From: Micrococcaceae bacterium RIT 802
Lineage (GTDB): Bacteria > Actinomycetota > Actinomycetes > Actinomycetales > Micrococcaceae
DNA: 24,000 nt
Reading direction: 5' to 3'
Assembly (NCBI GenBank): GCA_016892645.1
Contig: JAFEMX010000006.1
Location: 19,600-43,599, forward strand
Both the position numbers and the translations under genes were made by a program. Shown piece after piece: positions 3,973 to 18,840 of the stretch (position 1 is the first letter of the stretch; each line of letters opens with the position of its first letter). The notes under the pieces are model-generated. The model saw nothing but the letters and a program-made list of their open reading frames with translations, ran no database searches and was not told where the DNA came from.

Positions 3973-4474
3973 CAACGCCTTCGGCCGTTCGCTGGCCTCG
4001 CTCGATGCCGCGCTGATCGTGGTCACGACCGTCGCGGAGGGCGAACGGGCCGGTTGCGTGGTCGGATTCCACACGCGGTCGAGCATCGTGCCGCAGCACT
4101 TCAGCCTGTGGTTGTCCAAGGCCAACCACACCTACCGGACCGCCCTGCGGGCCACCCACTTCGCCGCCCATTTCCTCACGGCGGACGACCTCGCGCTGGC
4201 CGAGGCGTTCGGCACCCGTTCCGGTGACGACACCGACAAGTTCGCGGGCATCGACGTCGACATCGACGACCACGGCCTGCCGTTGCTCCGGGCCTGCCCC
4301 AACCGGACGGTGCTGGAGCGGATCACCCTGCTCGACGACGGCGGGGACCACGTGTGCCTCACCACCCGGGTCCTCGCGGCCCAGGCCGACGGGCCCTTCG
4401 TCCCCCTGCGCATGTCCGACGCCCTACACCTGGACCCCGGCCATGGGAGCGAGGAGCGGGCCATCCAGCCCTGA
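3965..4474 (+). CDS. Flavin reductase-like (FMN-binding split-barrel) protein
   Basis: 169 aa containing LIVVTTVAEGERAGCVVGFHTRSSIVPQHFSLWLSK and TRSGDDTDKF. The start overlaps the preceding gene by 8 nt, which suggests an operon. Confidence 0.75.
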   Translation: MSDNAFGRSLASLDAALIVVTTVAEGERAGCVVGFHTRSSIVPQHFSLWLSKANHTYRTALRATHFAAHFLTADDLALAEAFGTRSGDDTDKFAGIDVDIDDHGLPLLRACPNRTVLERITLLDDGGDHVCLTTRVLAAQADGPFVPLRMSDALHLDPGHGSEERAIQP

Positions 4475-7577: not shown

Positions 7578-7628
7578 ACACCACCGTCTGGAAGCGGAAC
7601 TCCACCGTGTTGCGGCGCCAAACAGCCT
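7578..7628 (-). repeat. ychF-3'-end-like repeat, copy D (most distal; stop codon lost)
   Basis: The 16 nt at 7591-7606 (gaagcggaactccacc) are identical to 17764-17779 inside the ychF terminus. The adjoining arm (sense GAGGCTGTTTGGCGCCGCAAC) matches about 24 of 33 nt of copy B in my hand alignment. The sense reading is WRRNTVEFRFQTVVS. Confidence 0.6.
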
Positions 7629-7767
7629 CACGATCTTGTGGGCGCAGCGGCAACCACGCATCGATCCAGGTCCAGGCGGCCGCGTCACCTTTCGCGGTAG
7701 CAGTGAGCACCCTGGCCTCAGCGGGAGCAGACATAGTCTAGGAACCCGTAGCAAAAGGAGAGATCCC

Positions 7768-8607
7768 ATGCCCGCTGTACTCGCTGCCGGACGGCGGCAC
7801 TCCGTAGCCTGCCGCGCAGACGGGACTGCCATCGCCGCCGGCGACGGCCGGGCAGGCGAGTGCGACGTAGTTGATTGGTCAGGTCTCATCGCCGTAGCCG
7901 CCGGAAACGTGCACTCCGCACCCAATACCGGTCGCTCACATACCGTCGGTCTGAGGGTCGACGGAACCGTCGTCGCCACCGGGTGGGACAGCGATGGGCA
8001 GGGCAACGTCTCCCGTTGGAGCGAGATCGTTGCCGTCGCAGCAGGGTGGAGAACAACTCTCGGTCTCCTAGCCGACGGAACCACGGTGTCCACCGGCCGC
8101 ACTGCGGAGGGCCAATGCGAAGTTCGAGCGTGGACAGGGGTCGTCTCGATCGCTGGCGGAGATTGGCACTCAGTCGCCGTCCGGAGCGACGGCACGGCCC
8201 TCGCGGCAGGCAACAACCAGCGCGGGCAATGCAGCATCGGCGGGTGGCGGAACCTGGTCGGCATCTCCGCCGGCTACCTGCACACTGCGGGTCTCCGGGG
8301 CGACGGCACGGTCGCTGCCACCGGCGATAACAGCTGGGGCCAATGCGACGTCGACCAGTGGAGTTGCGTCACGGAAATCGCGGCTGGCAGCGTACACACC
8401 GTTGCCCTTGGCGAAGATGGCCGGGTCCACGCTGTCGGCGACAATCGCTTCCGGCAGTGCGAGGTACAGGCGTGGACCGGTGTCACCGCCATCGCTGCCG
8501 GGTCGGCCCATACCCTCGGGCTCTTGGCGGACGGAACCGTGGTGTCTGCGGGAAGCAACGACAACCAGCAGTGCGACGTGGGCACCTGGCAGCTGCACCG
8601 ACGCTGA
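7768..8607 (+). CDS. RCC1-like repeat (beta-propeller) protein, seven ~38-aa blades
   Basis: The ATG at 7768 is preceded by AAAAGGAGAG. There are seven tandem units of the pattern (V/I)xAGxxH(T/S)xxLxxDGTVxxxGxNxxGQCxVxxW. No signal peptide and no additional domain are visible. Confidence 0.85.
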   Translation: MPAVLAAGRRHSVACRADGTAIAAGDGRAGECDVVDWSGLIAVAAGNVHSAPNTGRSHTVGLRVDGTVVATGWDSDGQGNVSRWSEIVAVAAGWRTTLGLLADGTTVSTGRTAEGQCEVRAWTGVVSIAGGDWHSVAVRSDGTALAAGNNQRGQCSIGGWRNLVGISAGYLHTAGLRGDGTVAATGDNSWGQCDVDQWSCVTEIAAGSVHTVALGEDGRVHAVGDNRFRQCEVQAWTGVTAIAAGSAHTLGLLADGTVVSAGSNDNQQCDVGTWQLHRR

Positions 8608-8641
8608 GGCAAACACCCTGACCGGCACAGACACCCCGAAC

Positions 8642-8659
8642 AAGTTGTTATAACAACTT
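8642..8659. promoter_or_regulatory. Perfect 18-bp AT-rich palindrome AAGTTGTTA|TAACAACTT
   Basis: Read directly. It lies between the convergent RCC1-like and WYL genes, in otherwise GC-rich DNA. It could be an operator or a weak bidirectional hairpin; its function is unknown. Confidence 0.35.
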
Positions 8660-8745
8660 CGCGCCGGCTGACGAAGAGTGAAACCGGAGTCGTCGACGGC
8701 CGAAAACTGAGCCGGTGTGACTGTTGAAAACCATGCCCGAGTTAA

Positions 8746-9732
8746 TCATCGGTCGTCGCCAGCAGCGTGAAGCAGCCTCGTCGCTGCAGCCCTCACCCGG
8801 TTTCGGAGTTCGTCGGGGCGATCGACCACGACCTCGCAGTCAAGAGCCGCTATGACGGACGGTAGCCAGTCGAGGTTCTCGGCATGGATCTTGGCCTGAT
8901 GCCAAGGCAGGGCGTCCTCGCGCCCCCGGTCCGCCGCGCGGTCCAGTCTTTCGAGTCGAGCCACGCTGCGCGGTAGATGCCGCCGGATGTGATCCTCTGT
9001 CGCTCGGATGCGCAGCACGACCTTCCATCGATAGTCCGCATTGGCAAAGAGCTCGAGGAGGCGACCTTCCACGTCGGGTTGCTGCGGCGGGGCGAAGGTT
9101 CCACGAATCGACCGAGCCGTTCGAATCCGGTCCACCCGGAACGTACGTTCCTCCTGCTTGTCCGTGTCGAACGCCACGAGATACCACCGGTCCGAGTGCG
9201 CGACCAGGGCATAGGGGTGGATCGTGCGCCGCGACGGGACACCTTCCCCGCTGAGGTAGCGCACGTCGAGGACGCGTCGGAGGTTCACGGCCTCCGCCAG
9301 GGTCAGCATCACGGCTGGGTCGGGCGCCACTCCCCCATGCTGGGACGTGCGCGTCATCACCCCGAGCAGGGTGTCGATCCGCTTCGCATCAGCGGTCGGC
9401 ATCGCTCGTTTGATCTTGGACAGGGCAGTCTGCGCGGCAATCTCCGGTTCGCGTGATGCTGCCTGCGCACGGGCGAGCCCCAGAAAAACCGCGACCACTT
9501 CCTCCCTGCTGAACATGAGCGGGAGGACGCGCTGGCCGGGCGCGAGCCGATAACCGCCGTAGCGCCCTCGCAGCGTCTCGACCGGCACTCCCAGATCGTA
9601 CAGACGCGCCACATCTCTGCGGATCGTCCGCTCGTCGACGCCGAGGCGTTCTGCCAGCTCGGCAACAGTGCGCTGTTGCGCGGACTGCAGTAGTTCGAGC
9701 ATTTGCAAGGTTCGCTCGGTTGGGCCGACCAT
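8746..9732 (-). CDS. WYL-domain transcriptional regulator (HTH - WYL - WCX; YafY/PafBC-like)
   Basis: N-terminal wHTH (TERTLQMLELLQSAQQRTVAELAERLGVDERTIRRDVARL), a WYL core (IHPYALVAHSDRWYLVAFD...RTFRVDRI) and a C-terminal extension. The start is ambiguous, with three candidate ATGs at 9732, 9741 and 9744. The track start at 9846 is not credible. Confidence 0.88.
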   Translation of the reverse strand: MVGPTERTLQMLELLQSAQQRTVAELAERLGVDERTIRRDVARLYDLGVPVETLRGRYGGYRLAPGQRVLPLMFSREEVVAVFLGLARAQAASREPEIAAQTALSKIKRAMPTADAKRIDTLLGVMTRTSQHGGVAPDPAVMLTLAEAVNLRRVLDVRYLSGEGVPSRRTIHPYALVAHSDRWYLVAFDTDKQEERTFRVDRIRTARSIRGTFAPPQQPDVEGRLLELFANADYRWKVVLRIRATEDHIRRHLPRSVARLERLDRAADRGREDALPWHQAKIHAENLDWLPSVIAALDCEVVVDRPDELRNRVRAAATRLLHAAGDDR

Positions 9733-9751
9733 GACACCCATCATTCCCCAG

Positions 9752-9776
9752 ATACCGGACAAATGTCGCCCGGTAT
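9752..9776. promoter_or_regulatory. Inverted repeat ATACCGG-N11-CCGGTAT in the divergent WYL/VOC intergenic region
   Basis: Perfect 7-bp arms at 9752-9758 and 9770-9776, between the WYL start (about 9732-9744) and the VOC start (9846). It is a candidate operator. Confidence 0.35.
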
Positions 9777-9845
9777 GGGCACTACCGTCATGTCCGTGGT
9801 CCGGTTCGTAGGCCGCATTCACGTTCACAACAGGAGGAGACGGCA

Positions 9846-10256
9846 ATGCAGTTTGCAGCCACCCGCATCATCACCGACGACGTCGACGGGCTCGTCGCGT
9901 TCTACGAAGCAGCAACAGGAATCACCGTGGAGCGGCTTCACCCGATGTTCGCCGAGTTTCGCACCCCATCCGGCACGCTAGCCGTCGCCAGCACCGCAAC
10001 GGTGCCGTTGCTCGGCGACAATGCCGCCGAGGCTCGCGCGAATCGCAGCATCACCTTAGACTTCCTCGTCGACGATGTTGACGCGACCTTCAAGCCTCTT
10101 CAGGGTGTCGTCGAAGTATTCGTCAATGAACCGACGGACATGCCCTGGGGCAATCGTTCGCTCCTCGTCAGGGATCCGGACGGCAACCTGATCAACTTCT
10201 TCACACCCATCGGCGAGACGGCCCGGGCCCGATTCGCGAACGGGGCCCAGGAGTAG
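9846..10256 (+). CDS. VOC family (glyoxalase/bleomycin-resistance/dioxygenase fold) protein
   Basis: 136 aa, with the ATG preceded by AGGAGGAG. The C-terminal part PWGNRSLLVRDPDGNLINFF is the classic VOC signature. Confidence 0.85.
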   Translation: MQFAATRIITDDVDGLVAFYEAATGITVERLHPMFAEFRTPSGTLAVASTATVPLLGDNAAEARANRSITLDFLVDDVDATFKPLQGVVEVFVNEPTDMPWGNRSLLVRDPDGNLINFFTPIGETARARFANGAQE

Positions 10257-10472
10257 AAACTGGTTTAGATAGGGGGCAAAGCAGCCACCGCAGTCGCCTC
10301 CGGGGGGACGCAGCGCCGCGTCGAAGATTGTGGAAAGGCGAACAACCGCGTCGTGCCCACCCTCGACCGAATGTCCTCCATGTGGGGTCGACATCGGCCC
10401 GGGGGCTTCTTGCTGCGCTTGTTCTTCCGGTTTTGCTGCGTCGGCCATGAGCTGGGTGGCTAGGCTGGGAGG

Positions 10473-11165
10473 ATGGCGACAGTTATCCTCGTGCGGCACG
10501 GCCGCACCACAGCCAATGCCACCGGGCTGCTGGCCGGTCGGGCCGTCGGAGTCAACCTGGACCAGATCGGGCGGGACCAGGCGGCGCTGACCGGCGACCG
10601 GATCGCGGCCGTTCCCGTGGTCGCGGTGGTGTCGAGCCCACTTGATCGTTGTCGGCAGACCGCCCAGCTCATCCTCGATCGCCAGACTGGAGCGCCTCAC
10701 GCGCCAGTCGATCCGGCGATTAATGAGTGCGATTACGGACAGTGGCAGGGTCGGCCCCTCAGCGAGCTAGCCAAGGAGGATTTGTGGACTGTGGTGCAGT
10801 CGCAACCGTCCGCCGTCGTCTTCCCCGGCGGTGAATCCATGGCCGGGATGCAGGCTCGATCCGTAGCAGCAATTCGACGCCATGATGCAGCCTTCGAAGC
10901 CGAGTACGGGCCCGAGGCCGTGTGGGTGGCGGTGAGCCACGGTGACATCATCAAATCAGTTCTTGCCGATGCGCTGGGCATGCACCTTGACCTGTTCCAG
11001 CGTATTGATGTCGGTCCGGCTTCAGTATCGATCGTGCACTACGGCGCTAGTCGGCCCAGCGTCCACGCGACCAACACCACCGCAGGCGATCTGTCGTGGC
11101 TGTCGAACCACGTCCACTCCGGCGACGCGCCGGTGGGCGGCGGTGCAGGGCATAAGGCGCCATGA
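10473..11165 (+). CDS. Histidine phosphatase family protein (MSMEG_4193-type putative phosphomutase)
   Basis: The catalytic RHG motif sits at the N-terminus (ILVRHGRTTAN), with a later SHGD stretch. It is followed by DUF3090 and SCO1664-family genes, as in the conserved actinobacterial cluster. Confidence 0.85.
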   Translation: MATVILVRHGRTTANATGLLAGRAVGVNLDQIGRDQAALTGDRIAAVPVVAVVSSPLDRCRQTAQLILDRQTGAPHAPVDPAINECDYGQWQGRPLSELAKEDLWTVVQSQPSAVVFPGGESMAGMQARSVAAIRRHDAAFEAEYGPEAVWVAVSHGDIIKSVLADALGMHLDLFQRIDVGPASVSIVHYGASRPSVHATNTTAGDLSWLSNHVHSGDAPVGGGAGHKAP

Positions 11166-11189
11166 ACCACTTGCGCCTAGAATACTGGC

Positions 11190-11744
11190 ATGCCTACACG
11201 TGTTCACGAGTTTGACTGGCCCGACCGGGTCGTCGTCGGCACCATCGGACTTCCGGGCGCGCGTACCTTCTACCTGCAGGTGCGCGCAGGGACGCAAGTC
11301 GTGAGTATCGCCCTCGAGAAGCAGCAGTCGGCTCTGCTCGCGGAGAAGATCGACGAAATCCTCGACGAACTCTTCACCCTCGACGGCAATCCCTTCAGCG
11401 TTCCCACGGGCACTCCCATTGAACTTGTCGACAATGACCAACTCGACGTTGTCCAGGAGCAGTTTCGCACCGGGACCATGGGCCTCGGGTGGGACCCCAC
11501 CACCGCCCAGGTCGTCATCGAGGCCCGCCCCATTGCCGAGGTCGATGCTGGCGACGGTGGCGAATGGCTTCAAGAGGACAGCGCGGACGAGTCCGAAATG
11601 CTCCGCGTGCGCATACCGGTCGGCACCGCCCGCGCATTCGCCAGACGCACCCGCGAGATCGTGGGCGCCGGGCGTCCGATGTGCCCGCTCTGCGGTTACC
11701 CCATTGATGCCGACGGACACACCTGTACCCTTCCCGAGGCGTGA
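11190..11744 (+). CDS. DUF3090 domain protein
   Basis: 184 aa starting VHEFDWPDRVVVGTIGLPGARTFYLQ and ending with the Cys cluster CPLCGYPIDADGHTC. This is the typical DUF3090 architecture. Confidence 0.8.
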   Translation: MPTRVHEFDWPDRVVVGTIGLPGARTFYLQVRAGTQVVSIALEKQQSALLAEKIDEILDELFTLDGNPFSVPTGTPIELVDNDQLDVVQEQFRTGTMGLGWDPTTAQVVIEARPIAEVDAGDGGEWLQEDSADESEMLRVRIPVGTARAFARRTREIVGAGRPMCPLCGYPIDADGHTCTLPEA

Positions 11745-12511
11745 TGCCAGCGCCGGACCTCGTGACCGCTGAACTGAATCTCACCGGCCGCATCACGACG
11801 GCTTCAAATGCAACTTTTCTGGGCAGCATCGGCGACGTGGTGGTCGTCTACAAGCCGATAGCCGGCGAAAGTCCGCTGTGGGATTTCCCCCAAGGGTTTC
11901 TGGCCCACCGGGAGGTGGCCGCCTACCTGGTGTCACAGGCCCTCGGCTGGAACATCGTCCCGCGGACCTGGCTGCGTGATGGACCGCTCGGTGACGGAAT
12001 GGTGCAGCTCTGGCAGGAACCGGACCCGGCCCACAGCGCCGTGGAACTGGTCGCAACGGATCAGGTGCCGGAGTCTGGCTGGAAACACGTCCTCGAGGGA
12101 CAAGACGAGAACGGACAGATGGTCGCCCTCATCCACGAAGACACTCTGGCGCTCCGACGGATGGCGGTCTTCGACATCATCGTCAACAACGCGGACCGCA
12201 AAGGCGACCACATTCTTGCCATGAGTGACGGACACCGGCACGGAGTGGACCATGGGGTCACCTTCCACCACGACCACAAGCTGCGCACGGTGCTGTGGGG
12301 ATGGCTGGGAGACCCGTTGAATGCCGACGAGCTCGACGGCGTCGCTCGCGTGAGCGAGGAACTCCGCGGTCCGCTGGGCCGGGAGTTAACCGGCTTGCTC
12401 AGCGCCGAGGAAATCGCGTCGCTCGCGGAGCGTTGCACCCGGCTGCTCTCGGCAGGACGGTTTCCGGCCCCCCGGGGTGAGATGCCAGCGGTTCCTTGGC
12501 CCCTGTTCTAG
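11741..12511 (+). CDS. SCO1664 family protein (PI3/4-kinase-like fold)
   Basis: 256 aa. The start overlaps the DUF3090 stop by 4 nt. It contains ASNATFLG, VYKPIAGESPLWDFP, NNADRKGDHIL and DHGVTFH. Confidence 0.8.
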   Translation: MMPAPDLVTAELNLTGRITTASNATFLGSIGDVVVVYKPIAGESPLWDFPQGFLAHREVAAYLVSQALGWNIVPRTWLRDGPLGDGMVQLWQEPDPAHSAVELVATDQVPESGWKHVLEGQDENGQMVALIHEDTLALRRMAVFDIIVNNADRKGDHILAMSDGHRHGVDHGVTFHHDHKLRTVLWGWLGDPLNADELDGVARVSEELRGPLGRELTGLLSAEEIASLAERCTRLLSAGRFPAPRGEMPAVPWPLF

Positions 12512-12535
12512 CTCGAGCCACACCCGGATCGGGCT

Positions 12536-12883
12536 TCAGTGGCCACCCGCCGCGTGCAACTTCCGCGCCGCTGCCGTCCTGAGCCGGTGGCGGAGTTCTT
12601 CGGGGCGATCGACCAGCACCTCGCAACCGACGGTCTCAATGACCGGCCGTATCCGGTCGAGGTTTACGGCATTGATGTCCATCCGACGGCAGGGCGGGGC
12701 AATGTTATGCATCCGTCCGTCCGGCGCAGCCCAGTCGTTCAAGCCGCGCCGCGGCGCAATGATGGCGGCTCCCAGATAGTCCTCGAGCACCGCATTAAAG
12801 ACCACCTGAGGCAGACTCAGGGCTGCACGACTCATCTGCCGTCCTGCGAACGGTTCACTAATTGCTCGCAGTACATGCCGCAT
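12536..12883 (-). pseudogene. Chimeric gene remnant: the 3' piece of a 17160-17600-type gene fused to the 3' (WCX) tail of a WYL regulator
   Basis: The C-terminal 44 aa (INAVNLDRIRPVIETVGCEVLVDRPEELRHRLRTAAARKLHAAG) match the tail of the intact WYL regulator at 8746-8890 at 27 of 44 positions. Bases 12797-12886 align without gaps to 17262-17351 at 64 of 90 nt by my hand count. There is no HTH, no WYL core and no credible start context. Confidence 0.6.
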
Positions 12884-12934
12884 CCCCTGCGCAACGGGAA
12901 CTCAACCACGGCGTCACGGTTGGATCCAGATTTT

Positions 12935-13345
12935 TCAGCGAGGCTCCGTCACGCCTGGCGCGATCACTTCGAGCCCTGCGGCTCGGGAAGCTTCACCAAG
13001 CCTGCGGTCGTACGTGAGGATCGCTGACGCATCAAGTCGCATCGCCGCTTCAAGATGCAGGGCGTCGAGCGTGCGGAGGTACGGCATCGGCAAGAAGCCC
13101 GCGCTGCGGTAGACAGCCCTGTCAAGCGCGGCGAGTCCGACACCTTCGAGGACACGAGTCACATCGGACTGTTCGAGTTTCTCCCGGACCGCGACACGGC
13201 GCAGTTCGGTCTCGAGCAGGTCGCTGGAGACGAGGGTAGCCTGCGTCCGGTCAAGCCAGTCCAGCACCGCCGGACTCTCGGGCTGGTCGATCAACAGCGC
13301 ACCAAGAGCGGAGGTATCGACGTAGACTACTGGATGGCTGGTCAC
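12935..13345 (-). CDS. vapC: PIN-domain toxin (VapC family)
   Basis: 136 aa starting VVYVDTSALGALL (first acidic PIN residue), with later SSDLLETEL and TLDALHLEAA and a C-terminal ILTYDRRL. Confidence 0.88.
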   Translation of the reverse strand: MTSHPVVYVDTSALGALLIDQPESPAVLDWLDRTQATLVSSDLLETELRRVAVREKLEQSDVTRVLEGVGLAALDRAVYRSAGFLPMPYLRTLDALHLEAAMRLDASAILTYDRRLGEASRAAGLEVIAPGVTEPR

Positions 13346-13623
13346 AGGCGATCGCCGCGCACGTCGTCGAGGATCGCGCTGAGGCTGTGCTCCGAGGTCT
13401 TACGTTCAATGGCCAGCCCCCTCCAGCCACCCTCGCGACGGGCGGGCCGGGTGATTTGCAGCGTGGCTGCGGGCGCATCCAACGGCACGATTCGCCCCAC
13501 GGGCACCCCACTGTTGGTCAAGATGAACGAGTGGCCCTCGCTCACCGCGCGGAGCACGCGGCCGGACTCGTTGCGAAGCTCGCGTTGTGACAAGCTCTCC
13601 GCCTGGGGTTCGCCGATGCTCAT
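13342..13623 (-). CDS. Phd/YefM-type antitoxin paired with the PIN toxin
   Basis: 93 aa containing SQRELRNESGRVLRAVSEGHSFILTNSGVPVGRIVPL, the Phd/YefM N-terminal fold signature. It overlaps vapC by 4 nt. Confidence 0.82.
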   Translation of the reverse strand: MSIGEPQAESLSQRELRNESGRVLRAVSEGHSFILTNSGVPVGRIVPLDAPAATLQITRPARREGGWRGLAIERKTSEHSLSAILDDVRGDRL

Positions 13624-13629
13624 GTACTA

Positions 13630-13635
13630 ATCGTA
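13630..13635 (-). promoter_or_regulatory. Candidate -10 box (TACGAT) for a leaderless antitoxin/PIN transcript
   Basis: The sense strand reads GGTGC-TACGAT-TAGTAC-ATG. This is a TANNNT hexamer 6 nt before the start codon, with no Shine-Dalgarno sequence. Confidence 0.3.
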
Positions 13636-13759
13636 GCACCCGTGCGACGTGGGGCAGGAAGTTGTCACCACGCCGAAACAGGCGGCTCCCGCACATCGGA
13701 CAGCCTGAACTAGCATCAACTACGCGTTAGTCCGAGTCGGCGATTTTCAGGTGACCCGA

Positions 13760-13806
13760 CTACACCTCCAAGCGGAATTCCAGCACGTTCCGTAGCCGAA
13801 TAATGT
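13760..13806 (-). repeat. ychF-3'-end-like repeat, copy C
   Basis: The sense strand reads AACATTATTCGGCTACGGAAC-GTGCTGGAATTCCGCTTGGAGGTGTAG (..IIRLRN VLEFRLEV*). The stop is at the same position as in ychF, and the arm is shared with copies A and B. Confidence 0.7.
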
Positions 13807-13871
13807 TTAGGCGCGGGAACGCCTGCGCCAGCTCAGTGACGGCAGCCGCAAGGCTCGATAAAGTACGTACC

Positions 13872-14141
13872 ATGACTACGTGGAGGTATGTCGCGAGCCG
13901 AGTCCGCGACCAAGCATCCTCCGAGGAGTCATGGGAGATCAGGGAACTCTTCCTCGAGTAGGACGGCAGATTCTCGTTCACCGACCAGGCGATCGCGCCC
14001 GCGGGCGCCACGATCGAGGAACTAGAGCGTGACCTCGAGGCCATGCTTCGCGATAGTCAGCAGCAGCCTCATCTTGATCTCACTGGCAATGAGCCGCGAC
14101 TCGCCAACGAGGGCGAGAAGATGGGCCGCCCGGCCGGATAG
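13872..14141 (+). pseudogene. Small hypothetical gene with an in-frame TAG at 13959-13961
   Basis: My frame-3 translation gives MTTWRYVASRVRDQASSEESWEIRELFLE*DGRFSFTDQAIAPAGATIEELERDLEAMLRDSQQQPHLDLTGNEPRLANEGEKMGRPAG*. The sequence looks protein-like on both sides of the single stop. The overlapping minus ORF 13760..14044 is S/R-rich and less credible. Confidence 0.4.
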
Positions 14142-14206
14142 ATACCGCCGACGCTGCTGCTTACACTGGGTTGAATCGCATCGCCCGAATAAGCCAGACC
14201 ACCTGC

Positions 14207-14461
14207 TCAGTAGTGGTATCGCGCTTGGAGGATGACAAGGTCGTCGCCGTCAACAAGGTAGACCAGCCTGTGTTCATCGGTGATGCGTCTCGACCACGAA
14301 CCTTGGGCGCCGTATTTGAGCTGCTCGGGCTTCCCTATACCGTCGAATGGCTCACGCAGGCAGGCGTCGATGAGCGTGTTGATCCGCTTGAGGATCCGTC
14401 GATCCGCCGTCTGCCAGTGCCTGTAGTCCTCCCACGCAGAGGAATCCCAAACGAGGCGCAA
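14207..14461 (-). CDS. yoeB: YoeB/Txe family toxin (mRNA interferase)
   Basis: 84 aa, with SAWEDYRHWQTADRRILKRINTLI, GIGKPEQLKY and WSRRITDEHRLVY, ending in ARYHY. The apparent TTG start directly follows the yefM TAA stop. Confidence 0.9.
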   Translation of the reverse strand: MRLVWDSSAWEDYRHWQTADRRILKRINTLIDACLREPFDGIGKPEQLKYGAQGSWSRRITDEHRLVYLVDGDDLVILQARYHY

Positions 14462-14713
14462 TTAGTCCTCGCGATCGAGTTCGTGCACCTCGGTCTGGCC
14501 CGTCCGAGCACGCTCGTAGGCGTCGAGCAGCCGGCGGGCATTGGCGGGCGAACGAAAGAGATATGCCGTCTCCTGCCACGCCGCGTACTCGGTGGCGGGC
14601 ATCAGTACGGCATTGCCTCCCCGGGAGACGATTTCCACGGCGTCATGGTCGTCGTTGATGCGTTGGATCAGCGGGAACAGGGTCTTGCGCGCCTCGCTGG
14701 CACTGATGGACAC
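14462..14713 (-). CDS. yefM: YefM/Phd family antitoxin
   Basis: 83 aa starting SISASEARKTLFPLIQRINDDHDAVEIVSRGGNAVLMPATEYAAWQETAYLFRSPANARRL. The GTG start at 14713 has AGGAG 8 nt upstream. Confidence 0.9.
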   Translation of the reverse strand: MSISASEARKTLFPLIQRINDDHDAVEIVSRGGNAVLMPATEYAAWQETAYLFRSPANARRLLDAYERARTGQTEVHELDRED

Positions 14714-14869
14714 GAGGAAGCTCCTATCGCACGTGGAACTGGAAATGGTACAACACTACGGTACCACTTCGATGCTGTCGGTCCATCCCATCAAGCCAAT
14801 GATGGGACTCAATAGGACCGCAGCCGGATCGACGGCCATGTCTCGGGGATCCGGAGATCCACTGCTGCT

Positions 14870-15214
14870 TTGTCTGCGGTCGGGCGTCACTCCGGAACAC
14901 CGGTGGCTGGATTGCGCGGACCACCCTTGACTTCGCCATCACTCCCATTAGATCTCGCACCAGCTGAAGGCGTGGTGGAGTTTCGGCTGGGAGCGCCCTG
15001 GTTACAGCTCGGCGAAGAGCCGACGACGCGTTCCGGGGCCGAGGTTGTGACTCGATTCGGAGTAGGTGACGCCGCTGTCGAACGGGCACGCTTGATCAGC
15101 TGCGTCATCGAGGTCGGGCCGTTGGAAAATGTTCCGGGCGCAGTCGACTATTTCGATTTCCTCGACCCCTGCGGCAACAACCTCAGCTTCTACTCCGAGG
15201 TGCAGCCGTGCTGA
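14870..15214 (+). pseudogene. 5'-truncated VOC/glyoxalase-fold gene fragment
   Basis: The C-terminal two-thirds look like a VOC domain (VVEFRLGAPWLQLGEE...FGVGDAAVERARL...VDYFDFLDPCGNNLSFY). The first beta-alpha unit is absent, and the N-terminal 25 codons look non-coding. Confidence 0.45.
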
Positions 15215-15335
15215 GTGATCGTCGCCAGATGGAATCCTGTTGAGTGCCGAATGGCGACCTCGCGATGGAAAACCTGTCGCCCGTCGACGGGACCCGTTCG
15301 CCGTTCACCGTGTCCATGCGCTGAGGAGGCAGACG

Positions 15336-15755
15336 TTAGACCGGAACCCCACTACACATTGAATCTGAATTCGACCACGTTCCGTAGCCGAACAACCTCT
15401 GCCTCGGACCCGCCATGCGCCCTCGTCCAACCGAGCCAAAATAGCCACGGATCGCCGGCAGGTCGACCACGAGAGTGTCCCAGACAGCCCCGTAGTCCGT
15501 TCCTTCATAGTGATGGGCCAGACGGTCACGCATACGCTTGATGAGCGACCAGGGCACATCGGGATGCAGAGCTGTCGTCTCCGTGCTCAGTCGCGCAACG
15601 TTTTCCCCGATCTTGATGATCAGGGACTCCGCTGCCAGGCCAGGGACGTTCTGCGGGTCGTCGACGAACCAGGCGTGTCCACGGGCAACCAGAACCGCGC
15701 CGACGTCACACAGGCGCACGATCTCCCGCAGCGCAGCTGCATCCCGCCCCGTCAT
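15336..15755 (-). CDS. hepT: HepT (DUF86/HEPN) toxin of a type VII HepT-MntA pair
   Basis: 139 aa with the HEPN R-x4-H motif in IKRMRDRLAHHYEG. The start overlaps the mntA stop (ATGA at 15752-15755). The last ~21 codons run through repeat copy B in a different frame. Confidence 0.85.
   Translation of the reverse strand: MTGRDAAALREIVRLCDVGAVLVARGHAWFVDDPQNVPGLAAESLIIKIGENVARLSTETTALHPDVPWSLIKRMRDRLAHHYEGTDYGAVWDTLVVDLPAIRGYFGSVGRGRMAGPRQRLFGYGTWSNSDSMCSGVPV
15352..15397 (-). repeat. ychF-3'-end-like repeat, copy B
   Basis: The sense strand reads GAGGTTGTTCGGCTACGGAAC-GTGGTCGAATTCAGATTCAATGTGTAG, which is ..VVRLRN VVEFRFNV*. The octapeptide and stop are identical to ychF, and all 5 nt differences are synonymous. 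Confidence 0.8.
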
Positions 15756-16195
15756 ACGGCAACGGCCGTGGTCAGCACCTCATGATCAGCTCGCAGGCCG
15801 CCATCAGTCACCACGTCGACCTCGACTCCGAGCAGTTCCGTCGCCCGCTCAGTGAACGCGGCCAGCGCCATCAATCCGACGCCGGGCGAGCGTGTCACCA
15901 GGATGTCGAGGTCACTGCCCGGTTCGTCTGCCCCGCGCACGACCGACCCGAAGACGCGAAGGTTCGTGAGGCCGTAGTTCCCGGCCAACGTCACAAGCTC
16001 GTGACGGTGCTCAGCCAGCGCCTGATGAGGCAGCGGGCGGGCGGCGCGTCGCAGGCGCTCCAACATAACCGCCGAAGCCCTGCGTCTGCCGGCCTCGTAC
16101 GCCGCGATGTTGGGTTGTGCCACTCCTGACCGGTCGGCCAGCTCAGCTTGGCTGAGACCGGCCTCCTCACGCAGTTGTCGTACGGTGTTCACCAT
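15752..16195 (-). CDS. mntA: MntA-type nucleotidyltransferase antitoxin with an N-terminal XRE-type HTH
   Basis: The track ORF 15752..16480 is trimmed to MVNTVRQLREEAGLSQAELADRSGVAQPNIAAYEAG (HTH; ATG at 16195). It is followed by the NTase motif FGSVVRGADEPGSDLDILV. Confidence 0.85.
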   Translation of the reverse strand: MVNTVRQLREEAGLSQAELADRSGVAQPNIAAYEAGRRRASAVMLERLRRAARPLPHQALAEHRHELVTLAGNYGLTNLRVFGSVVRGADEPGSDLDILVTRSPGVGLMALAAFTERATELLGVEVDVVTDGGLRADHEVLTTAVAV

Positions 16196-16201
16196 GCAAC
16201 T

Positions 16202-16218
16202 ATCATATCGCGTGATAT
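16202..16218 (-). promoter_or_regulatory. Candidate -10 (TATGAT) for leaderless mntA-hepT, overlapping the inverted repeat ATATC-N4-GATAT
   Basis: The sense strand reads ATATATCACGCGA-TATGAT-AGTTGC-ATG, a TANNNT hexamer 6 nt from the start with no SD. The AT-rich inverted repeat at 16205-16218 is a plausible operator for the fused HTH. Confidence 0.3.
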
Positions 16219-16242
16219 ATAGACCCGCGGGGCTCGAGACCC

Positions 16243-16280
16243 CTAACACGTTCAATCGGACTCCACCGCTTTGCAATGCT
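16243..16280 (-). repeat. ychF-3'-end-like repeat, copy E (degenerate, with indels)
   Basis: The plus strand ctaacacgttcaatcggactccaccgctttgcaatgct aligns with copy A (ctacacgttgaaacgggaattccaccacgtttcgtaacc) with a few 1-nt indels. It lies between mntA and the DUF4177 gene. Confidence 0.5.
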
Positions 16281-16346
16281 GAGACCCTGTCGACGCGCCG
16301 GCACTTCGGGCTATCCAGACTCCCCGGCGCGTTTCGCGATGTGCGA

Positions 16347-16553
16347 TTAACCGAGGCTCTCGAAAACCATCGTTGCCTGGATGCGGTCACCGCCACCGAT
16401 TCCCTTGCTCCCGCTACTCGCAGTGGTAATGGTGTGGAGTCGATAGCCCTTCGCGGCCTGCTCGTTGATGGCCTGCTCAAGGGAGGACAGGTTGCCTGAA
16501 CCGGTTCCCCAGAGTTTCTCTTTGAGGATTACCAGTACGACGACATAGTGCAT
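16347..16553 (-). CDS. DUF4177 domain small protein
   Basis: The track ORF 16347..16931 is trimmed to MHYVVVLVILKEKLWGTGSGNLSSLEQAINEQAAKGYRLHTITTASSG...ATMVFESLG (ATG at 16553, 68 aa). This is the typical DUF4177 layout. Confidence 0.65.
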   Translation of the reverse strand: MHYVVVLVILKEKLWGTGSGNLSSLEQAINEQAAKGYRLHTITTASSGSKGIGGGDRIQATMVFESLG

Positions 16554-17043
16554 GACGTGACTTCTTCCGTTGCTGGTCAATTTGGAGTCATGCTCCTCGA
16601 TGCTGCGAGGTCCGGGCATAAGCGTGCATCCCAAAGGTCCTGAAGGAAGTAAGCCCTGCCAGCCGAAGCGCCGAGCGCACGGCTCCGCAGCCTTCTGCGT
16701 GATCCGCACTTCGACTTGCCGAACCTTGCCCGCGTTCCGAATGAATGCCGCCAAGACGCCAGGTGGAATTCTCAGGGCGCCGTCGCCTCGGCGAGACGTC
16801 GCGGCTGCCGCCGCCAATGTACCCCTGCGATGTTTGCGGCGACCTGCCCACAGAGCCCGGCTGTTCTGCCTTAGCCCGGAATTCGACAGGGGATTAATCC
16901 AGACACTCAACCCGACGAAACTCGCTGTCAATCATGGCGTGACCCCAGTTAGCTCATGATGGGCGTTCTAGACAACGCAATTCCTGGCCTCCAGCTTGTA
17001 AGTCGATCGAATAGCAGATTCGGCAGAATCGTGGGGAAGCTGA

Positions 17044-17090
17044 CTACACGTTGAAACGGGAATTCCACCACGTTTCGTAACCGATCAACA
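17044..17090 (-). repeat. ychF-3'-end-like repeat, copy A
   Basis: The sense strand reads GATGTTGATCGGTTACGAAAC-GTGGTGGAATTCCCGTTTCAACGTGTAG. Deleting one C of the CCC run restores VVEFRFNV* with only synonymous differences from ychF. Confidence 0.8.
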
Positions 17091-17159
17091 TCACCGGCGC
17101 CTGCGATCCCAGCTACGTCCTCAGGCTCCGCGGCCGGCGGCCCTCGCGTGGCGGCGTCA

Positions 17160-17600
17160 CTAACGGGGGCGCCGAAATGGGTAGGGCCACCACCACCGAT
17201 GTTGCGATCGGCGCTCAGCCCTGCGTCGAGCAGTGTCCAGATAATCATCACGCGCTGGGACAAAGACCGACTCAGGCAAACTCAGCGGCGCACGATTCAA
17301 CTCACTTTCTGCCAGCAGATGGCTAATTGCCCTCGGCATCAGCCGCATCCCGCCAGAACCTTTCACGGACCGCATGAGCTGTCCGCCCTGCTCAGTGAGC
17401 CTCATCCTCCAGGATGGATCGACCTCAGCAAGGCCGGAACCCACCAGGATAGATATTGCCGTCTCAATCTGTGTGCTTGAAGGCACGTCGGCCTGCAGCA
17501 TGTCCCATCCTGACAGCAACCCGCGTATCGATGAGGGGTGCTTCCCTCGACGGAGCAGGGTCATAAGCGTCGCGGCGTCCTCCGTGTCTCTACGGTCCAT
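17160..17600 (-). CDS. Hypothetical protein (possible winged-helix-like); orphan cassette next to ychF
   Basis: The track ORF 17160..17723 is trimmed to MDRRDTEDAATLMTLLRRGKHPSSIRGLLSGWDMLQADVPSSTQIETAISILVGSGLAEV (ATG at 17600). The 3' part has a paralogous remnant at 12797-12886. The W/R/P-rich last ~20 codons may be out of frame. Confidence 0.5.
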   Translation of the reverse strand: MDRRDTEDAATLMTLLRRGKHPSSIRGLLSGWDMLQADVPSSTQIETAISILVGSGLAEVDPSWRMRLTEQGGQLMRSVKGSGGMRLMPRAISHLLAESELNRAPLSLPESVFVPARDDYLDTARRRAERRSQHRWWWPYPFRRPR

Positions 17601-17754
17601 GAAGTTCAGGCTAGCCAGCTTCGAGCCCCCCGCCGAATCGGGAACAGCCACCGTTCCCGAAGTACTTGACGTTCCCGTCGGTCCAGGAAGCGAAGGAAGA
17701 AAGGCCCGAGATGCGATCAGCATCCCGAACCTTTCTCAAGCAATTGGTCGAGGC

Positions 17755-18840
17755 CTATACATTGAAGCGGAACTCCACCACGTCGCCGTCCTTCATGACG
17801 TAGTCCTTGCCCTCGATGCGCGCCTTGCCGGCGGCCTTGGCAGCGGCGGTGGATCCGGCGGCGACGAGGTCGTCGAACCCGATGACCTCGGCCTTGATGA
17901 AACCGCGCTGGAAGTCGGTGTGGATGACGCCCGCGGCCTGCGGGGCCGTGTCTCCCTGGTGGATCGTCCAGGCGCGCGATTCCTTCGGTCCGGCGGTCAA
18001 GTAAGTCTGCAGTCCCAGGGTCTTGAAGCCGACGCGGGCCAGCTTGTCCAGGCCCGACTCGGCATAGCCGGCCTCCGCGAGCATCTCGGCTGCCTCGTCC
18101 TCGTCGAGTTCCACGAGGTCGGATTCGAACTGGGCATCCAGGAAGATGGCCTCCGCCGGCGCGACGAGTTCGGACAAGCGCGAACGCAAGGCGTCATCGG
18201 CCAGTCCGTCCTCGTCCATGTTGAAGACGTAGATGAACGGCTTCGTGGTCATCAGCTGCAGCGAGGCGATCTCCGCCAGGTCCAGCTTCGCGGCGGCAGC
18301 ACCAGCGAACAGGGTGGTCCCGGATTCCAGGACCTCCTGGGCGGTCTTGATGGCCGCCAGCAGGGAGGCGTCGGCCTTCTTGGCCTTGACCTCCTTTTCC
18401 AGGCGCGGCAGCTGGTTTTCGATCGTCTGCAGATCGGCGAGGATCAGCTCGGTGGCGATCGTCTCGATGTCGCCGGCCGGATCGATCTCGCCGTTGACGT
18501 GCACGACGTCGGAATCGGAGAACGCACGGGTGACCTGGCAGATGGCGTCGGCTTCGCGGATGTTGGCCAGGAACTTGTTGCCCAGCCCCTCCCCCTCGGA
18601 CGCGCCCTTGACGATGCCGGCGATGTCGACGAACGACACCGTCGCCGGCAGGATGCGCTCGGATCCGAAGATCCCGGCCAGGACCTTCAGCCGGTCATCG
18701 GGCAGGGACACCACTCCGACGTTGGGCTCGATCGTGGCGAACGGGTAGTTCGCCGCGAGAACCTGCGCGCGGGTCAGTGCATTGAACATGGTTGACTTGC
18801 CGACGTTGGGCAGTCCGACGATTCCGATTGTTAGAGCCAC
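17755..18840 (-). CDS. ychF: Redox-regulated ATPase YchF (Obg-like GTPase family)
   Basis: A GTG at 18840 gives the canonical N-terminus (M)ALTIGIVGLPNVGKSTMFNALT. The TGS-like C-terminus is KDYVMKDGDVVEFRFNV*. The track start at 18864 is a TTG 8 codons upstream. Confidence 0.93.
   Translation of the reverse strand: MALTIGIVGLPNVGKSTMFNALTRAQVLAANYPFATIEPNVGVVSLPDDRLKVLAGIFGSERILPATVSFVDIAGIVKGASEGEGLGNKFLANIREADAICQVTRAFSDSDVVHVNGEIDPAGDIETIATELILADLQTIENQLPRLEKEVKAKKADASLLAAIKTAQEVLESGTTLFAGAAAAKLDLAEIASLQLMTTKPFIYVFNMDEDGLADDALRSRLSELVAPAEAIFLDAQFESDLVELDEDEAAEMLAEAGYAESGLDKLARVGFKTLGLQTYLTAGPKESRAWTIHQGDTAPQAAGVIHTDFQRGFIKAEVIGFDDLVAAGSTAAAKAAGKARIEGKDYVMKDGDVVEFRFNV

Follow-up and report, generated by a model that had tools for sequence, protein, structure and literature searches.

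Results

The region analysed is a 24,000-nucleotide stretch of Micrococcaceae bacterium RIT 802 (contig JAFEMX010000006.1, assembly GCA_016892645.1), hereafter the window, in which the housekeeping gene ychF, encoding a redox-regulated ATPase, occupies positions 17755-18840 on the minus strand with a GTG start. The identification rests on the translation and on Pfam-annotated homologues that are 93-98% identical. The last eight codons and stop of ychF (17755-17781) recur as part of a repeated unit downstream of the gene, and divide approximately 10 kb into small gene cassettes. The repeats had been described in an earlier note as five copies, A to E, and that observation is confirmed, although copy E is marginal: the sequences were all found at the positions given, on the minus (ychF-sense) strand.

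The cassettes were examined in order from ychF, using Pfam and NCBIfam. Cassette 1 (17068-17777, minus strand) contains orf187 (17160-17723), a gene of unknown function with no Pfam or NCBIfam hit, and the same cassette, flanked by units, occurs in four loci of other genomes (L051, L057, L083 and L074; L numbers here denote loci in other genomes). The last 27 nt of ychF are considered part of this first cassette, since in L051 and L057 the same 27 nt plus the DNA that follows is joined to an element arm. Cassette 1 ends at unit A (17039-17092, minus strand), which carries a 1-nt insertion in its right half and is probably dead; the identical decayed copy is present in L051 and L057. Cassette 2 (15375-17067, minus strand) comprises a DUF4177 gene (16347-16556), remnant E (16244-16269), an HTH-MntA-like nucleotidyltransferase gene (15752-16195) and a HepT-like RNase gene (15336-15755), and ends at unit B (15351-15401, minus strand), the best-preserved unit, with its central GT at 15375-15374 and a trailing right-half remnant at 15330-15355. 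Cassette 3 (13783-15374, minus strand) contains a glyoxalase-like fragment on the plus strand (14870-15214), yefM (14462-14713), yoeB (14207-14461) and a doubtful orf94. An orthologous cassette is present in L116 at 90-92% identity, where the gene at that position has a weak Glyoxalase hit, and YefM-YoeB is 81-89% identical at the amino acid level in L066, L023 and L027. Unit C (13759-13808, minus strand) has CT as its central dinucleotide (GTGCTG) and is probably frozen, with the same CT being present in the orthologous L116 site. Cassette 4 (12896-13782, minus strand) encodes VapB (13342-13623) and a VapC PIN toxin (12935-13345) and ends in a core remnant at 12896-12910; a VapBC pair with 80% amino acid identity lies between two units in Demequina soli (L036). 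Beyond this, on the plus strand at 10473-12511, are MSMEG_4193-family phosphomutase, DUF3090 and SCO1664-family genes, which are conserved actinobacterial genes that lie inside the array, and which form the distal anchor in L116, L117 and L051. Unit D (7591-7630, minus strand), in the gap between a GNAT gene and an RCC1-repeat gene, is a decayed copy that retains the arm and inner core, including a 16-nt exact match to ychF, but has lost the stop.

The significance of the repeats was examined next. The pattern TCGGYTACGRAACGTGNTNGAATTC, allowing up to three mismatches, matched exactly A, B and C in the window, whereas none of 100 dinucleotide shuffles gave any hit; similarity no better than shuffled background had been named in the earlier note as grounds for abandoning the idea, and the similarity is far above it. 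An nhmmer profile built from 75 units of other species, with the close relatives of the window excluded, scored B at E 6e-17, A at 4e-13, C at 3e-11 and the true ychF end at 1e-9, the last through its right half only (profile positions 23-56). D scored 1.7e-4, indicating a decayed but real copy, whereas E scored 0.026, matching through the right half only and without an arm. Two further right-half remnants that had not been listed previously were detected at 15330-15355 (E 0.026) and 12896-12910 (E 0.23). The synonymous divergence described in the earlier note holds at the level of the family: of 81 displaced units, 61 still read VVEFRFNV followed by a stop, with nucleotide diversity of 0.34 at third codon positions compared with 0.07 at first and 0.05 at second positions.

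The earlier note had also reported that no recombinase gene lies between the copies. Indeed, Pfam searches found no recombinase, transposase or relaxase among the ORFs judged most likely to be genes across the region and both flanks, which is a selected set as opposed to every ORF, and tblastn with a large serine recombinase (LSR) found none anywhere in the window; the rest of the genome was not examined. Similarly, no tyrosine recombinase and no polymerase domain was found among the window ORFs scanned.

A scan of 185,579 species genomes was conducted to establish whether the unit is a dispersed repeat, an outcome that the earlier note had accepted would count against its reading. The unit was found in about 75 actinobacterial species of many genera, and every genome with the unit has it in one region, with the only genomes that have two loci having them in adjacent 8-kb blocks. 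Units are co-oriented in every locus but one (L055), and lie downstream of ychF in all 23 loci where ychF is in view. Arrays, present in more than 20 genomes, reach at least 9 units, and the 127 inter-site segments have a median length of 1.2 kb, with 96 of them being 0.3-2 kb. At least three arm types exist.

Comparison with close relatives addressed the remaining condition set out beforehand, namely that an identical gene order without indels bounded by the copies would refute the idea. L115, L116 and L117, with YchF 93-98% identical, keep LytB-RmuC-ychF on one side, and L116 and L117 also keep the SCO1664 block on the far side (it is not within the 10 kb read for L115), but all three carry different cassette sets between. 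Homology with L116 resumes at the core of copy B, homology with L051 and L057 starts at the core of the ychF end, and three strains share the left side of unit B and differ directly after GTGGT. The specific arrangement suggested in the earlier note, of ychF directly followed by the GNAT gene, was not seen; in L020 ychF is followed directly by the SCO1664 block. None of the three refuting conditions of the earlier note thus refuted the idea.

Cassettes 1 and 2 together, a recombinase-less block of 2.4 kb, are 99.2% identical to L051/L057, while the neighbouring SCO1664 gene is 77% identical. In addition, a HigBA cassette is 87% identical between the Nocardia loci L104 and L105, where ychF is 75% identical; it sits at different array positions, and the homology starts at the core. 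HigBA-plus-cargo cassettes without an LSR recur in at least 8 genera with different left neighbours.

The identity of the associated recombinase was then examined in other genomes. An intact LSR, with Pfam Resolvase and Recombinase domains, starts 15-26 nt from the arm of the unit in L102 and L098, and a 59-residue LSR stump sits there in six more genera. Complete elements of 8-10 kb, of the form ychF-attL ... LSR-attR, are seen in L199 and L198. Of 80 metagenomic loci encoding relatives of the LSR, 43 have ychF upstream in the same orientation, and in 26 of these it is within 18-61 nt.

In 34 pairs of units with the same upstream but different downstream DNA, linkage to the left flank ends exactly after GTGGT, although the sample for right-flank linkage is small (9 pairs). 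Reconstructed attP is a dyad centred on the G|T of GTG-GTG, with 15-20 of 30 symmetric positions compared with 6-9 of 30 for attB. The outer B' motif matches P' best at a 5-nt shift (7-8 of 14) in four of the five elements reconstructed, while the fifth (L131) ties at 5 of 14 between shifts of 1 and 5. These features agree with LSR attachment sites, in which attP is an imperfect inverted repeat of about 50 bp, attB is much less symmetric and the outer (zinc-ribbon) motif is displaced by about 5 bp between P-type and B-type half-sites.

Discussion

The data are best explained, with good confidence, by the 3' end of ychF being the chromosomal attachment site (attB) of a clade of LSRs carried by integrative mobilisable or conjugative elements of Actinomycetota. 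The interpretation in the earlier note, that the copies are ychF termini displaced by elements that integrate site-specifically into the gene end and bring a replacement end, is supported, and can be made more specific in that the recombinase family can be named. Some elements of this view are shown by, or follow directly from, the sequences. Strand exchange is at the GT inside the Val-Val codons (GTG|GTN), such that everything 3' of that point, including the last eight codons and stop of ychF, travels with whatever lies downstream; the junction in L051 and L057 shows the replacement end directly. Each repeated unit in the window is an attR-type hybrid, joining the element-side (P-type) left half-site, AGGTTATTCGGCTACGGAAC, to a chromosome-side (B'-type) right half-site that once served as a ychF terminus, which explains why the copies differ almost only at synonymous positions. 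The ychF end itself (17755-17802, minus strand) is an attB-type site, with a left half of ychF coding sequence and a central GT inferred to be at 17778-17777 in the sense order. The window therefore reads as an intact attB at ychF, then at least four recombinase-less cassettes carrying toxin-antitoxin and small unknown genes, separated by attR scars A, B and C plus remnants, followed by a block of conserved genes with an old scar, D, beyond it.

Other elements are inferred. Arrays presumably grow at the ychF-proximal end, and recombinase-less cassettes would spread as passengers or in trans. An integrated LSR element could excise using a distal attR instead of its own, carry the intervening cassettes to a new host, and leave them behind when it excises precisely. 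Only the ychF site and B look intact in the window. The currently movable unit would be cassettes 1 and 2 together, which is exactly the block found to be 99% identical in distant strains.

There are difficulties with this model. No LSR is present in the window, and nothing has been tested experimentally, recombination in vivo or in vitro included. Canonical LSR chemistry (attP x attB) does not by itself create a segment bounded by a B'-type half on the left and a P-type arm on the right, leaving the origin of new cassettes without an account. The LSR-bearing elements seen whole (L198, L199 and a second subfamily) replace the YchF tail, for example with VVEFR-SGLTSGGKR and a stop, whereas the cassettes of the window carry normal ends of the FNV-stop type. 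The cognate recombinase of each arm type was not assigned, and the presence of the conserved SCO1664 block inside the array is unexplained. Sites A, C and D are damaged, hence much of the array may be immobile.

It is conceivable, although unlikely, that the cassettes are fossils only, each being the in-place remnant of a once-autonomous LSR element that lost its recombinase, with none having moved without its own recombinase and array differences reflecting independent insertions and deletions. The LSR stumps next to arms in six genera, the decayed sites of the window, and site scores that range from intact to barely detectable are consistent with this. However, most inter-site segments are far below the size of the complete elements in L198 and L199, the near-identical 2.4-kb block is bounded by intact sites, and the HigBA cassettes recur without an LSR beside different left neighbours. 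It is less likely still that the units act only as portable homology, with RecA-dependent recombination between the roughly 48-nt repeats, after conjugation or transformation, creating the presence and absence patterns. Units are 85-95% alike and co-oriented, and could support rare homologous exchange; indeed, the window and L116 share a 4.9-kb segment at 92% identity that includes the SCO1664 block, while their ychF regions are 83% identical, which looks like a larger homologous replacement. Yet left linkage in the 34 informative pairs ends at one position as opposed to being spread along the unit, that position is the dyad centre of the reconstructed attP, and LSR genes abut the sites.

A tyrosine-recombinase system (integron-like, Xer/IMEX-like or a classical integrase) using the ychF end as its core site appears very improbable. 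The unit does have a short dyad, CGGAAC-N8-GTTCCG, which could in principle be a tyrosine-recombinase core, and the arrays of small cassettes look integron-like, but no tyrosine recombinase is next to any unit examined: the only Phage_integrase gene seen, in L202, is 10 kb from the element and unrelated to a unit. The gene next to the arm is repeatedly an LSR, and the attP dyad of roughly 50 bp and the 5-nt half-site shift match the published rules for LSR sites. Equally improbable is a generic dispersed repeat (REP or MITE), families in which short, conserved, repeated non-coding units are typical and many copies are scattered in both orientations, or a local duplication of the gene end, with no site-specific role. 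This is contradicted by the single region per genome, the near-uniform orientation, the linkage to ychF, an arm that is not ychF sequence and yet is conserved across genera, and the coding-type substitution pattern of the displaced ends.

A more far-reaching but tentative possibility is that Actinomycetota possess a serine-recombinase counterpart of the integron. The 3' end of ychF would be a self-renewing platform, because each incoming cassette brings a new functional gene end and so regenerates attB, and one- and two-gene cassettes (toxin-antitoxin, defence, resistance-like enzymes) would be captured there, stockpiled and redistributed in trans by LSRs carried on mobilisable or conjugative elements.

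Comparison with known systems

The earlier note knew of no description of ychF as an accretion hotspot. However, the gene has already been named, in 2024, as an integration site for LSR-encoding pipolins in Actinomycetota (NAR, PMC11551731), the only published mention of ychF as such a site that was found; no description of the attachment-site anatomy or of the cassette arrays was found. The target gene, phylum and recombinase class are the same, but that work inferred the site from gene context only, and reports no direct repeats, attachment-site structure or arrays. Neither the primer-independent PolB (piPolB) gene that marks a pipolin nor a recombinase was found among the window ORFs scanned, the cassettes of the window are 0.7-1.7 kb, and the elements seen here are mobilisable elements (relaxase plus NikA), conjugative-type elements (FtsK plus DUF927) and tiny cassettes.

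The layout resembles the SCC and SCCmec composite islands at rlmH (orfX) in staphylococci, which are moved by the CcrAB or CcrC LSRs. There too, an LSR integrates at the 3' end of a conserved housekeeping gene with the reading frame kept, every element is flanked by direct repeats that contain the gene end, and elements stack in tandem, including recombinase-less pseudo-SCC elements that depend on a recombinase supplied elsewhere. Tandem elements bounded by repeats containing the gene end, some without a recombinase, are seen both in the window and in the arrays of other genomes. The system works like SCC but is not a member of that family: the target, phylum and LSR clade differ, although relatedness of the clade to Ccr was not tested, the cassettes are much smaller and more numerous (at least 9 sites), and the complete LSR elements change the YchF tail, whereas the cassettes restore it.

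Integron cassette arrays, and attC clusters that lack an integrase (CALINs), are likewise one-directional arrays of one- or two-gene cassettes, rich in toxin-antitoxin, defence and small-enzyme genes, next to a fixed platform, with most arrays lacking their own recombinase and growth probably at the platform-proximal end. The array is not an integron, however, which has an IntI tyrosine recombinase with attI and Pc and cassettes ending in attC hairpin sites: no tyrosine recombinase was found among the window ORFs scanned, the linked recombinase in other genomes is of the serine type as opposed to the tyrosine IntI, and the sites are ychF-derived direct repeats, that is, double-stranded attR-type hybrids that contain coding sequence and not folded single-stranded attC sites. 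Gene orientation within the cassettes is mixed, so a common promoter is unlikely. In the accretion and cis-mobilisable elements (CIMEs) at the ICESt1/ICESt3 site in fda, and in IMEX elements at dif, non-autonomous elements flanked by attachment sites similarly accumulate beside an autonomous element and are moved by its recombinase, but those systems use tyrosine recombinases, and the arrays here are longer and follow the attachment-site logic of an LSR. Finally, the sites share with those of canonical serine integrases (phiC31, Bxb1, A118/LI integrase) an attP of about 50 bp that is an inverted repeat around a central dinucleotide, a weakly symmetric attB, and an outer motif 5 bp nearer the centre in attB-type than in attP-type half-sites, as in the half-site model of Rutherford et al. 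(2013); they differ in that the central region lies in a coding sequence, and in that many attR sites persist in tandem next to an intact attB.

Recurrence of the ychF terminus within the window

The window comprises high-GC DNA (66.7% G+C), in which ychF is located on the minus strand at positions 17755-18840. Examination of this strand revealed that the last 27 nt of ychF (GTGGTGGAGTTCCGCTTCAATGTATAG) recur at each of the positions listed in the earlier note, and that in copies A to D they are preceded by about 20 nt that is not ychF sequence; the observation made in that note is therefore confirmed. Since similarity no greater than that of shuffled sequence had been named beforehand as grounds for abandoning the idea, the window was searched with a degenerate pattern allowing up to 3 mismatches, which identified exactly copies A, B and C, whereas none of 100 dinucleotide shuffles gave any hit. 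Additionally, a profile constructed only from units of other species recovered B (E 6e-17), A (E 4e-13), C (E 3e-11), the true ychF end through its right half only (E 1e-9), and D (E 1.7e-4). Conversely, copy E and two further remnants, at 15330-15355 and 12896-12910, are marginal and comprise the right half only. The possibility that the units represent the 3' ends of real genes was rejected, since the upstream in-frame sequence is full of stop codons. A search with the exact sequence of the window's YchF found it not to be on record.

Analysis with Pfam and NCBIfam revealed the gene content of the array which, in order from ychF, comprises an unknown 187-aa ORF, unit A, DUF4177 followed by an HTH-nucleotidyltransferase with a HepT-like RNase, unit B, a glyoxalase-like fragment followed by YefM-YoeB, unit C, VapBC, a fragment of a WYL regulator, the conserved SCO1664/DUF3090/MSMEG_4193 trio, a glyoxalase, a WYL regulator and an RCC1-repeat protein, unit D, and a GNAT gene. 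No recombinase, transposase or relaxase was found among the ORFs scanned anywhere in the 24 kb, in keeping with the earlier note. The G+C content of the cassette region is 59-63%, against 65-75% in the outer flanks. A 115-codon ORF without a Pfam hit at 12536-12883 duplicates the 3' end of the WYL-regulator gene at 8746-9846 (165 nt at 72% identity, repeat family D1), and the glyoxalase-like fragment at 14870-15214 may be the other half of a second divergent WYL-glyoxalase pair that was split by cassettes 3 and 4. The RCC1-repeat protein (7636-8607), which has seven RCC1_2 repeats with an internal DNA periodicity of 114 and 228 nt, is located between unit D and the WYL regulator.

Distribution of the unit

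Next, the distribution of the unit was examined by scanning one genome from each of 185,579 species for CGGYTNCGNAACGTNNTNGARTTC. This returned 103 loci, of which about 75 carry the complete unit, including the ychF end and a stop codon; individual loci from this and later searches are designated L followed by a number. The remaining loci, which lack the rest of the unit, are the number of chance matches estimated in advance from pattern degeneracy and collection size (about 35). With two exceptions, the loci with the complete unit are from Actinomycetota, the genera including Demequina, Arthrobacter, Brevibacterium, Brachybacterium, Corynebacterium, Acidipropionibacterium, Kocuria, Nesterenkonia, Dietzia, Microbacterium and others. 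One exception is labelled only 'uncultured Micrococcaceae bacterium', whereas the other (L007), a 10-kb contig (QFNC01000053.1) with two typical units that is filed under a Pseudoxanthomonas suwonensis metagenome-assembled genome, is probably a mis-binned actinobacterial contig. Genome-wide scattering without linkage to ychF had been proposed as a result that would count against a site-specific role; however, no genome has units in two separate regions, and the only genomes with two loci have them in adjacent 8-kb blocks.

Use of the profile identified 229 sites in 101 loci. Within each locus all sites point the same way, the single exception being L055, in which two identical units, with identical flanks over at least the 94 nt compared, lie in inverted orientation about 3.5 kb apart (4275-4327, minus strand, and 7796-7848, plus strand), and which could be an inversion substrate or an assembly artefact. 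In all 23 genome loci where ychF is in view the units lie downstream of it and in the ychF orientation. Arrays are common: Demequina soli has at least 9 units spaced 0.5-0.9 kb apart (L099 plus L036), and Nocardia farcinica has several sites 5-9 kb beyond ychF. The 127 inter-site segments have a median of 1.2 kb, and 96 of them are 0.3-2 kb. Cargo is diverse, with 88 Pfam families among 150 representative ORFs, including TetR, GNAT, glyoxalase, AAA_33 kinases, GmrSD, Abi_2, Zeta and Phd/YefM. Orientation of the cassette genes was also examined, but the crude ORF calling employed placed 126 in the ychF direction and 124 opposite, from which a bias can be neither asserted nor dismissed; called genes in L115, L116 and L117, three Arthrobacter loci described below, are mixed in orientation.

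The earlier note had also suggested that extrachromosomal elements be searched for the unit. No hits to the unit pattern were obtained in viral contigs, and the consensus unit gave only two matches in plasmid and phage collections, both to the right half plus the HigBA leader. One was to a Nocardia farcinica replicon and the other to an unverified 'bacteriophage' contig that is really a ychF locus; hence no free attP was found on a plasmid or phage in these collections.

A widespread family of cassettes comprising HigB-HigA plus one cargo gene was observed (L104 12001-12630, L105 11460-12064, L115 16677-19368, L117 17969-19213, and L199), in which the cargo is an aminoglycoside-resistance-like gene, a hydrolase, an AAA_33 kinase or a GNAT. 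The family has a conserved leader directly after the stop codon (TAGCGTTATTGACG-N5-CGTTATA) and, in the two Arthrobacter loci checked (L115 and L117), the arm at its far end is of the T2 type described below. In Mycobacterium tuberculosis, ychF (Rv1112) is followed directly by vapBC32 (Rv1113-Rv1114), an arrangement that was not checked in this analysis; if it is correct, toxin-antitoxin genes behind ychF in mycobacteria may be a relic of the same system.

The associated recombinase

In two loci the gene that starts next to the arm, and which reads away from it, is an intact large serine recombinase (LSR). In Brevibacterium casei (L102) the protein is 514 aa, with Pfam Resolvase plus Recombinase domains, and its gene starts 26 nt from the unit, whereas in a Brachybacterium (L098) the gene starts 15 nt from a unit. 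In six more genera the same position holds a 59-residue stump of that LSR, followed by a TetR and oleate-hydratase cassette. Indeed, the composite of the N-terminal LSR stump, a TetR gene and a 585-aa MCRA/oleate hydratase gene occurs next to a unit in at least seven genera from two orders (L066, L068, L086, L008, L038, L021, and L117 at 15062-17969), and looks like a recently spread, recombinase-dead element.

The LSR family has at least 500 homologs, and is found at the ends of mobilisable or conjugative-type elements that carry relaxase plus NikA, or FtsK plus DUF927. Two complete examples were recovered. In Brevibacterium sp. LE-L (L199) the order is LytB, RmuC, ychF, an element of about 8 kb (methyltransferase, relaxase, NikA, HTH_17, LSR), a unit, and then further cassettes including HigBA; Microbacterium aurugineum (L198) is analogous. 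Metagenomes were then scanned with an LSR alignment, which revealed that in 43 of 80 loci ychF lies upstream in the same orientation as the LSR, and that in 26 of these it ends 18-61 nt before the LSR start. This second subfamily is 43-48% identical to the L102 protein and is located at the ychF-proximal end of its element. However, not every member of the clade targets ychF, since the LSR of Arthrobacter sp. I2-34 (L106) has a diverged, non-ychF site. When the far end of the Brevibacterium aurantiacum conjugative-type element was examined for an attL of the LSR type closest to L102, no ychF was present within 10 kb, and the attR of that element has a non-ychF right half.

In genomes with an LSR element, or some cassettes, at the site, YchF has an alternative C-terminal tail. 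VVEFR-SGLTSGGKR, -TGLTSGGKK, -IGNTSSGSK or -TGLTSGNKK precedes the stop codon in place of VVEFRFNV (L199, about 3526-3567 in the flipped locus; L198; L159, L160, L131 and L136; L103, 4664-4690), and the last residues of this universally conserved protein therefore vary with the inserted element.

Crossover point and site architecture

Among 34 pairs of units that share upstream but not downstream DNA, mismatches are almost absent up to GTGGT, and rise to background level from the very next base. At unit B, the window and loci L051 and L057 share the left side and diverge directly after GTGGT. For five complete elements, attP was rebuilt from the left of attR and the right of attL, and was found to be a dyad centred on the G|T of GTG-GTG, with 15-20 of 30 symmetric positions, whereas the rebuilt attB has 6-9 of 30. 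The outer part of the ychF-side half-site matches the element-side half-site best when shifted by 5 nt in four of the five elements. This is the published architecture of serine integrase attachment sites (Rutherford et al. 2013) and, by that reading, the units in the window are attR-type sites (P-type left half, B'-type right half), and its ychF end is an intact attB. At least three related arm types occur, namely T1 (AGGTTATTCGGCTACGGAAC), T2 (GGTTNNTCCGTGCCGGAAC) and T3 (ACGTTCGCTAACYGCGGCGAC).

In the window itself, sites A, C and D are probably dead, and only the ychF site and B look usable. Site A carries an insertion, whereas unit C has CT rather than GT at the inferred crossover dinucleotide (GTGCTG, Val-Leu; window 13782-13783), as does its counterpart in L116 (about 14898). 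For a serine recombinase this would block recombination with GT sites and freeze that boundary.

Polymorphism in close relatives

The earlier note had proposed a search for presence/absence differences between close relatives with breakpoints at the repeat copies, and this was examined using YchF homologs 93-98% identical to that of the window, which led to the Arthrobacter loci L115, L116 and L117. All three keep LytB, RmuC and ychF on one side, and L116 and L117 also keep the SCO1664 block on the far side, which is not within the 10 kb read for L115. Between these anchors the content differs completely: L116 has an Abi_2 cassette, L117 has a 6.9-kb segment ending in the LSR stump and then HigBA, and L115 has HigBA-plus-cargo cassettes and an IS element. 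In the part of the array where the window has the RCC1-repeat gene the close relatives have a TPR_5 gene, which in L115 is flanked by units, whereas in L116 no units were detected beyond 14922.

Alignment against the window revealed that homology with L116 stops at the ychF end and resumes at the core of unit B (window 15380), whereas homology with L051/L057 (99.2% over window 15356-17783) begins at the core of the ychF end. In L051 and L057 the very sequence that ends the window's ychF, together with the DNA after it, is joined to an element arm, and other cassettes lie upstream of it, so the last eight ychF codons of the window belong to cassette 1. The ychF ends of L115, L116 and L117 each differ in the right half, and one carries an amino-acid change (FSI before the stop), as expected if each end is supplied by a different first cassette. 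Cassettes 3 and 4 together with the SCO1664 block (window 10454-15380, L116 13200-18233) are 90-92% identical to L116, whereas ychF and the 6 kb upstream are only 83% identical, which suggests a larger replacement of the array-plus-anchor segment, possibly by homologous recombination.

Movement of recombinase-less DNA

The block made of cassettes 1 and 2 is 99% identical between the window and L051/L057, despite the adjacent SCO1664 gene of L051 being only 77% identical to that of the window. This block is bounded by intact sites, and its internal site A carries the same 1-nt insertion in all three genomes. Additionally, a HigBA cassette is 87% identical between Nocardia farcinica, where it lies 5.3 kb from ychF, and another actinobacterium, where it is fused to ychF; the two ychF genes are 75% identical, and the homology starts at the core. 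Across 81 displaced units, 61 still encode VVEFRFNV and the stop codon, and variation is concentrated at third codon positions (0.34, against 0.07 and 0.05). These ends therefore evolved as working ychF termini, as inferred in the earlier note, the interpretation of which is supported.

Mechanism

The sequence comparisons show that the sites have LSR architecture, where the crossover is positioned, that the sites are linked to LSR genes, that polymorphisms are bounded by the sites and that recombinase-less blocks have been transferred recently, whereas the route by which such blocks move is inferred. It is envisaged that an integrated LSR element can excise using a distal attR, in which case it would carry the intervening cassettes to a new host and deposit them when it later excises with its own attR. 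This would need only canonical attL x attR and attP x attB reactions, and would explain both block transfer and foreign ychF ends.

How a new segment bounded by a B' half on the left and a P arm on the right first arises is not clear, since the complete LSR elements that were observed replace the YchF tail (VVEFR-SGLTSGGKR, -TGLTSGGKK, -IGNTSSGSK) rather than restoring FNV and the stop; for the same reason, self-renewal of attB through a ychF-like P' half was not shown. Likewise, it is unexplained how housekeeping-type genes came to lie between attachment sites. In the window the conserved actinobacterial trio of MSMEG_4193-family phosphomutase, DUF3090 and SCO1664 (10473-12511) lies between units C and D, whereas in Arthrobacter mobilis (L020, 3081-4265) a frameshifted SCO1664 plus DUF3090 form a 1.3-kb cassette-like segment bounded by the ychF end and a unit, with an ArfB-like gene in the next cassette. 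Loci L052 and L059 also bear on this observation.

The system would define a sequence-recognisable hotspot for horizontally acquired genes in a large, medically and industrially important phylum, the genera observed including Corynebacterium, Brevibacterium, Arthrobacter, Nocardia, Acidipropionibacterium and Microbacterium, and a 48-nt signature lets cassettes be delimited automatically. The last eight codons of a universally conserved gene are routinely exchanged by site-specific recombination and, since ychF is used as a phylogenetic and typing marker, its 3' end should not be assumed to be inherited vertically. The analysis also yields natural attB, attP and attR sets for a diverse LSR clade, with the crossover inferred from sequence comparison, as material for recombinase engineering, and provides a test case for the question of how recombinase-less DNA is mobilised by unidirectional serine integrases.

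Comparison with known systems

Previous work named ychF as a new integration site for LSR-encoding pipolins in Actinomycetota, from gene context alone (PMC11551731), whereas further full-text searches, confined to open-access papers, found nothing on attachment-site anatomy or cassette arrays at ychF. The system is not an integron, having no IntI and no attC sites, and neither is it a dispersed repeat; its reading as an integron-like serine-recombinase platform is tentative. The closest functional analogue is the staphylococcal SCC composite island at rlmH, which also has an LSR, a target at the 3' end of a conserved gene, repeats that contain the gene end, and tandem elements that include recombinase-less ones. 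The present system differs from SCC in target gene and phylum, and its cassettes are far smaller.
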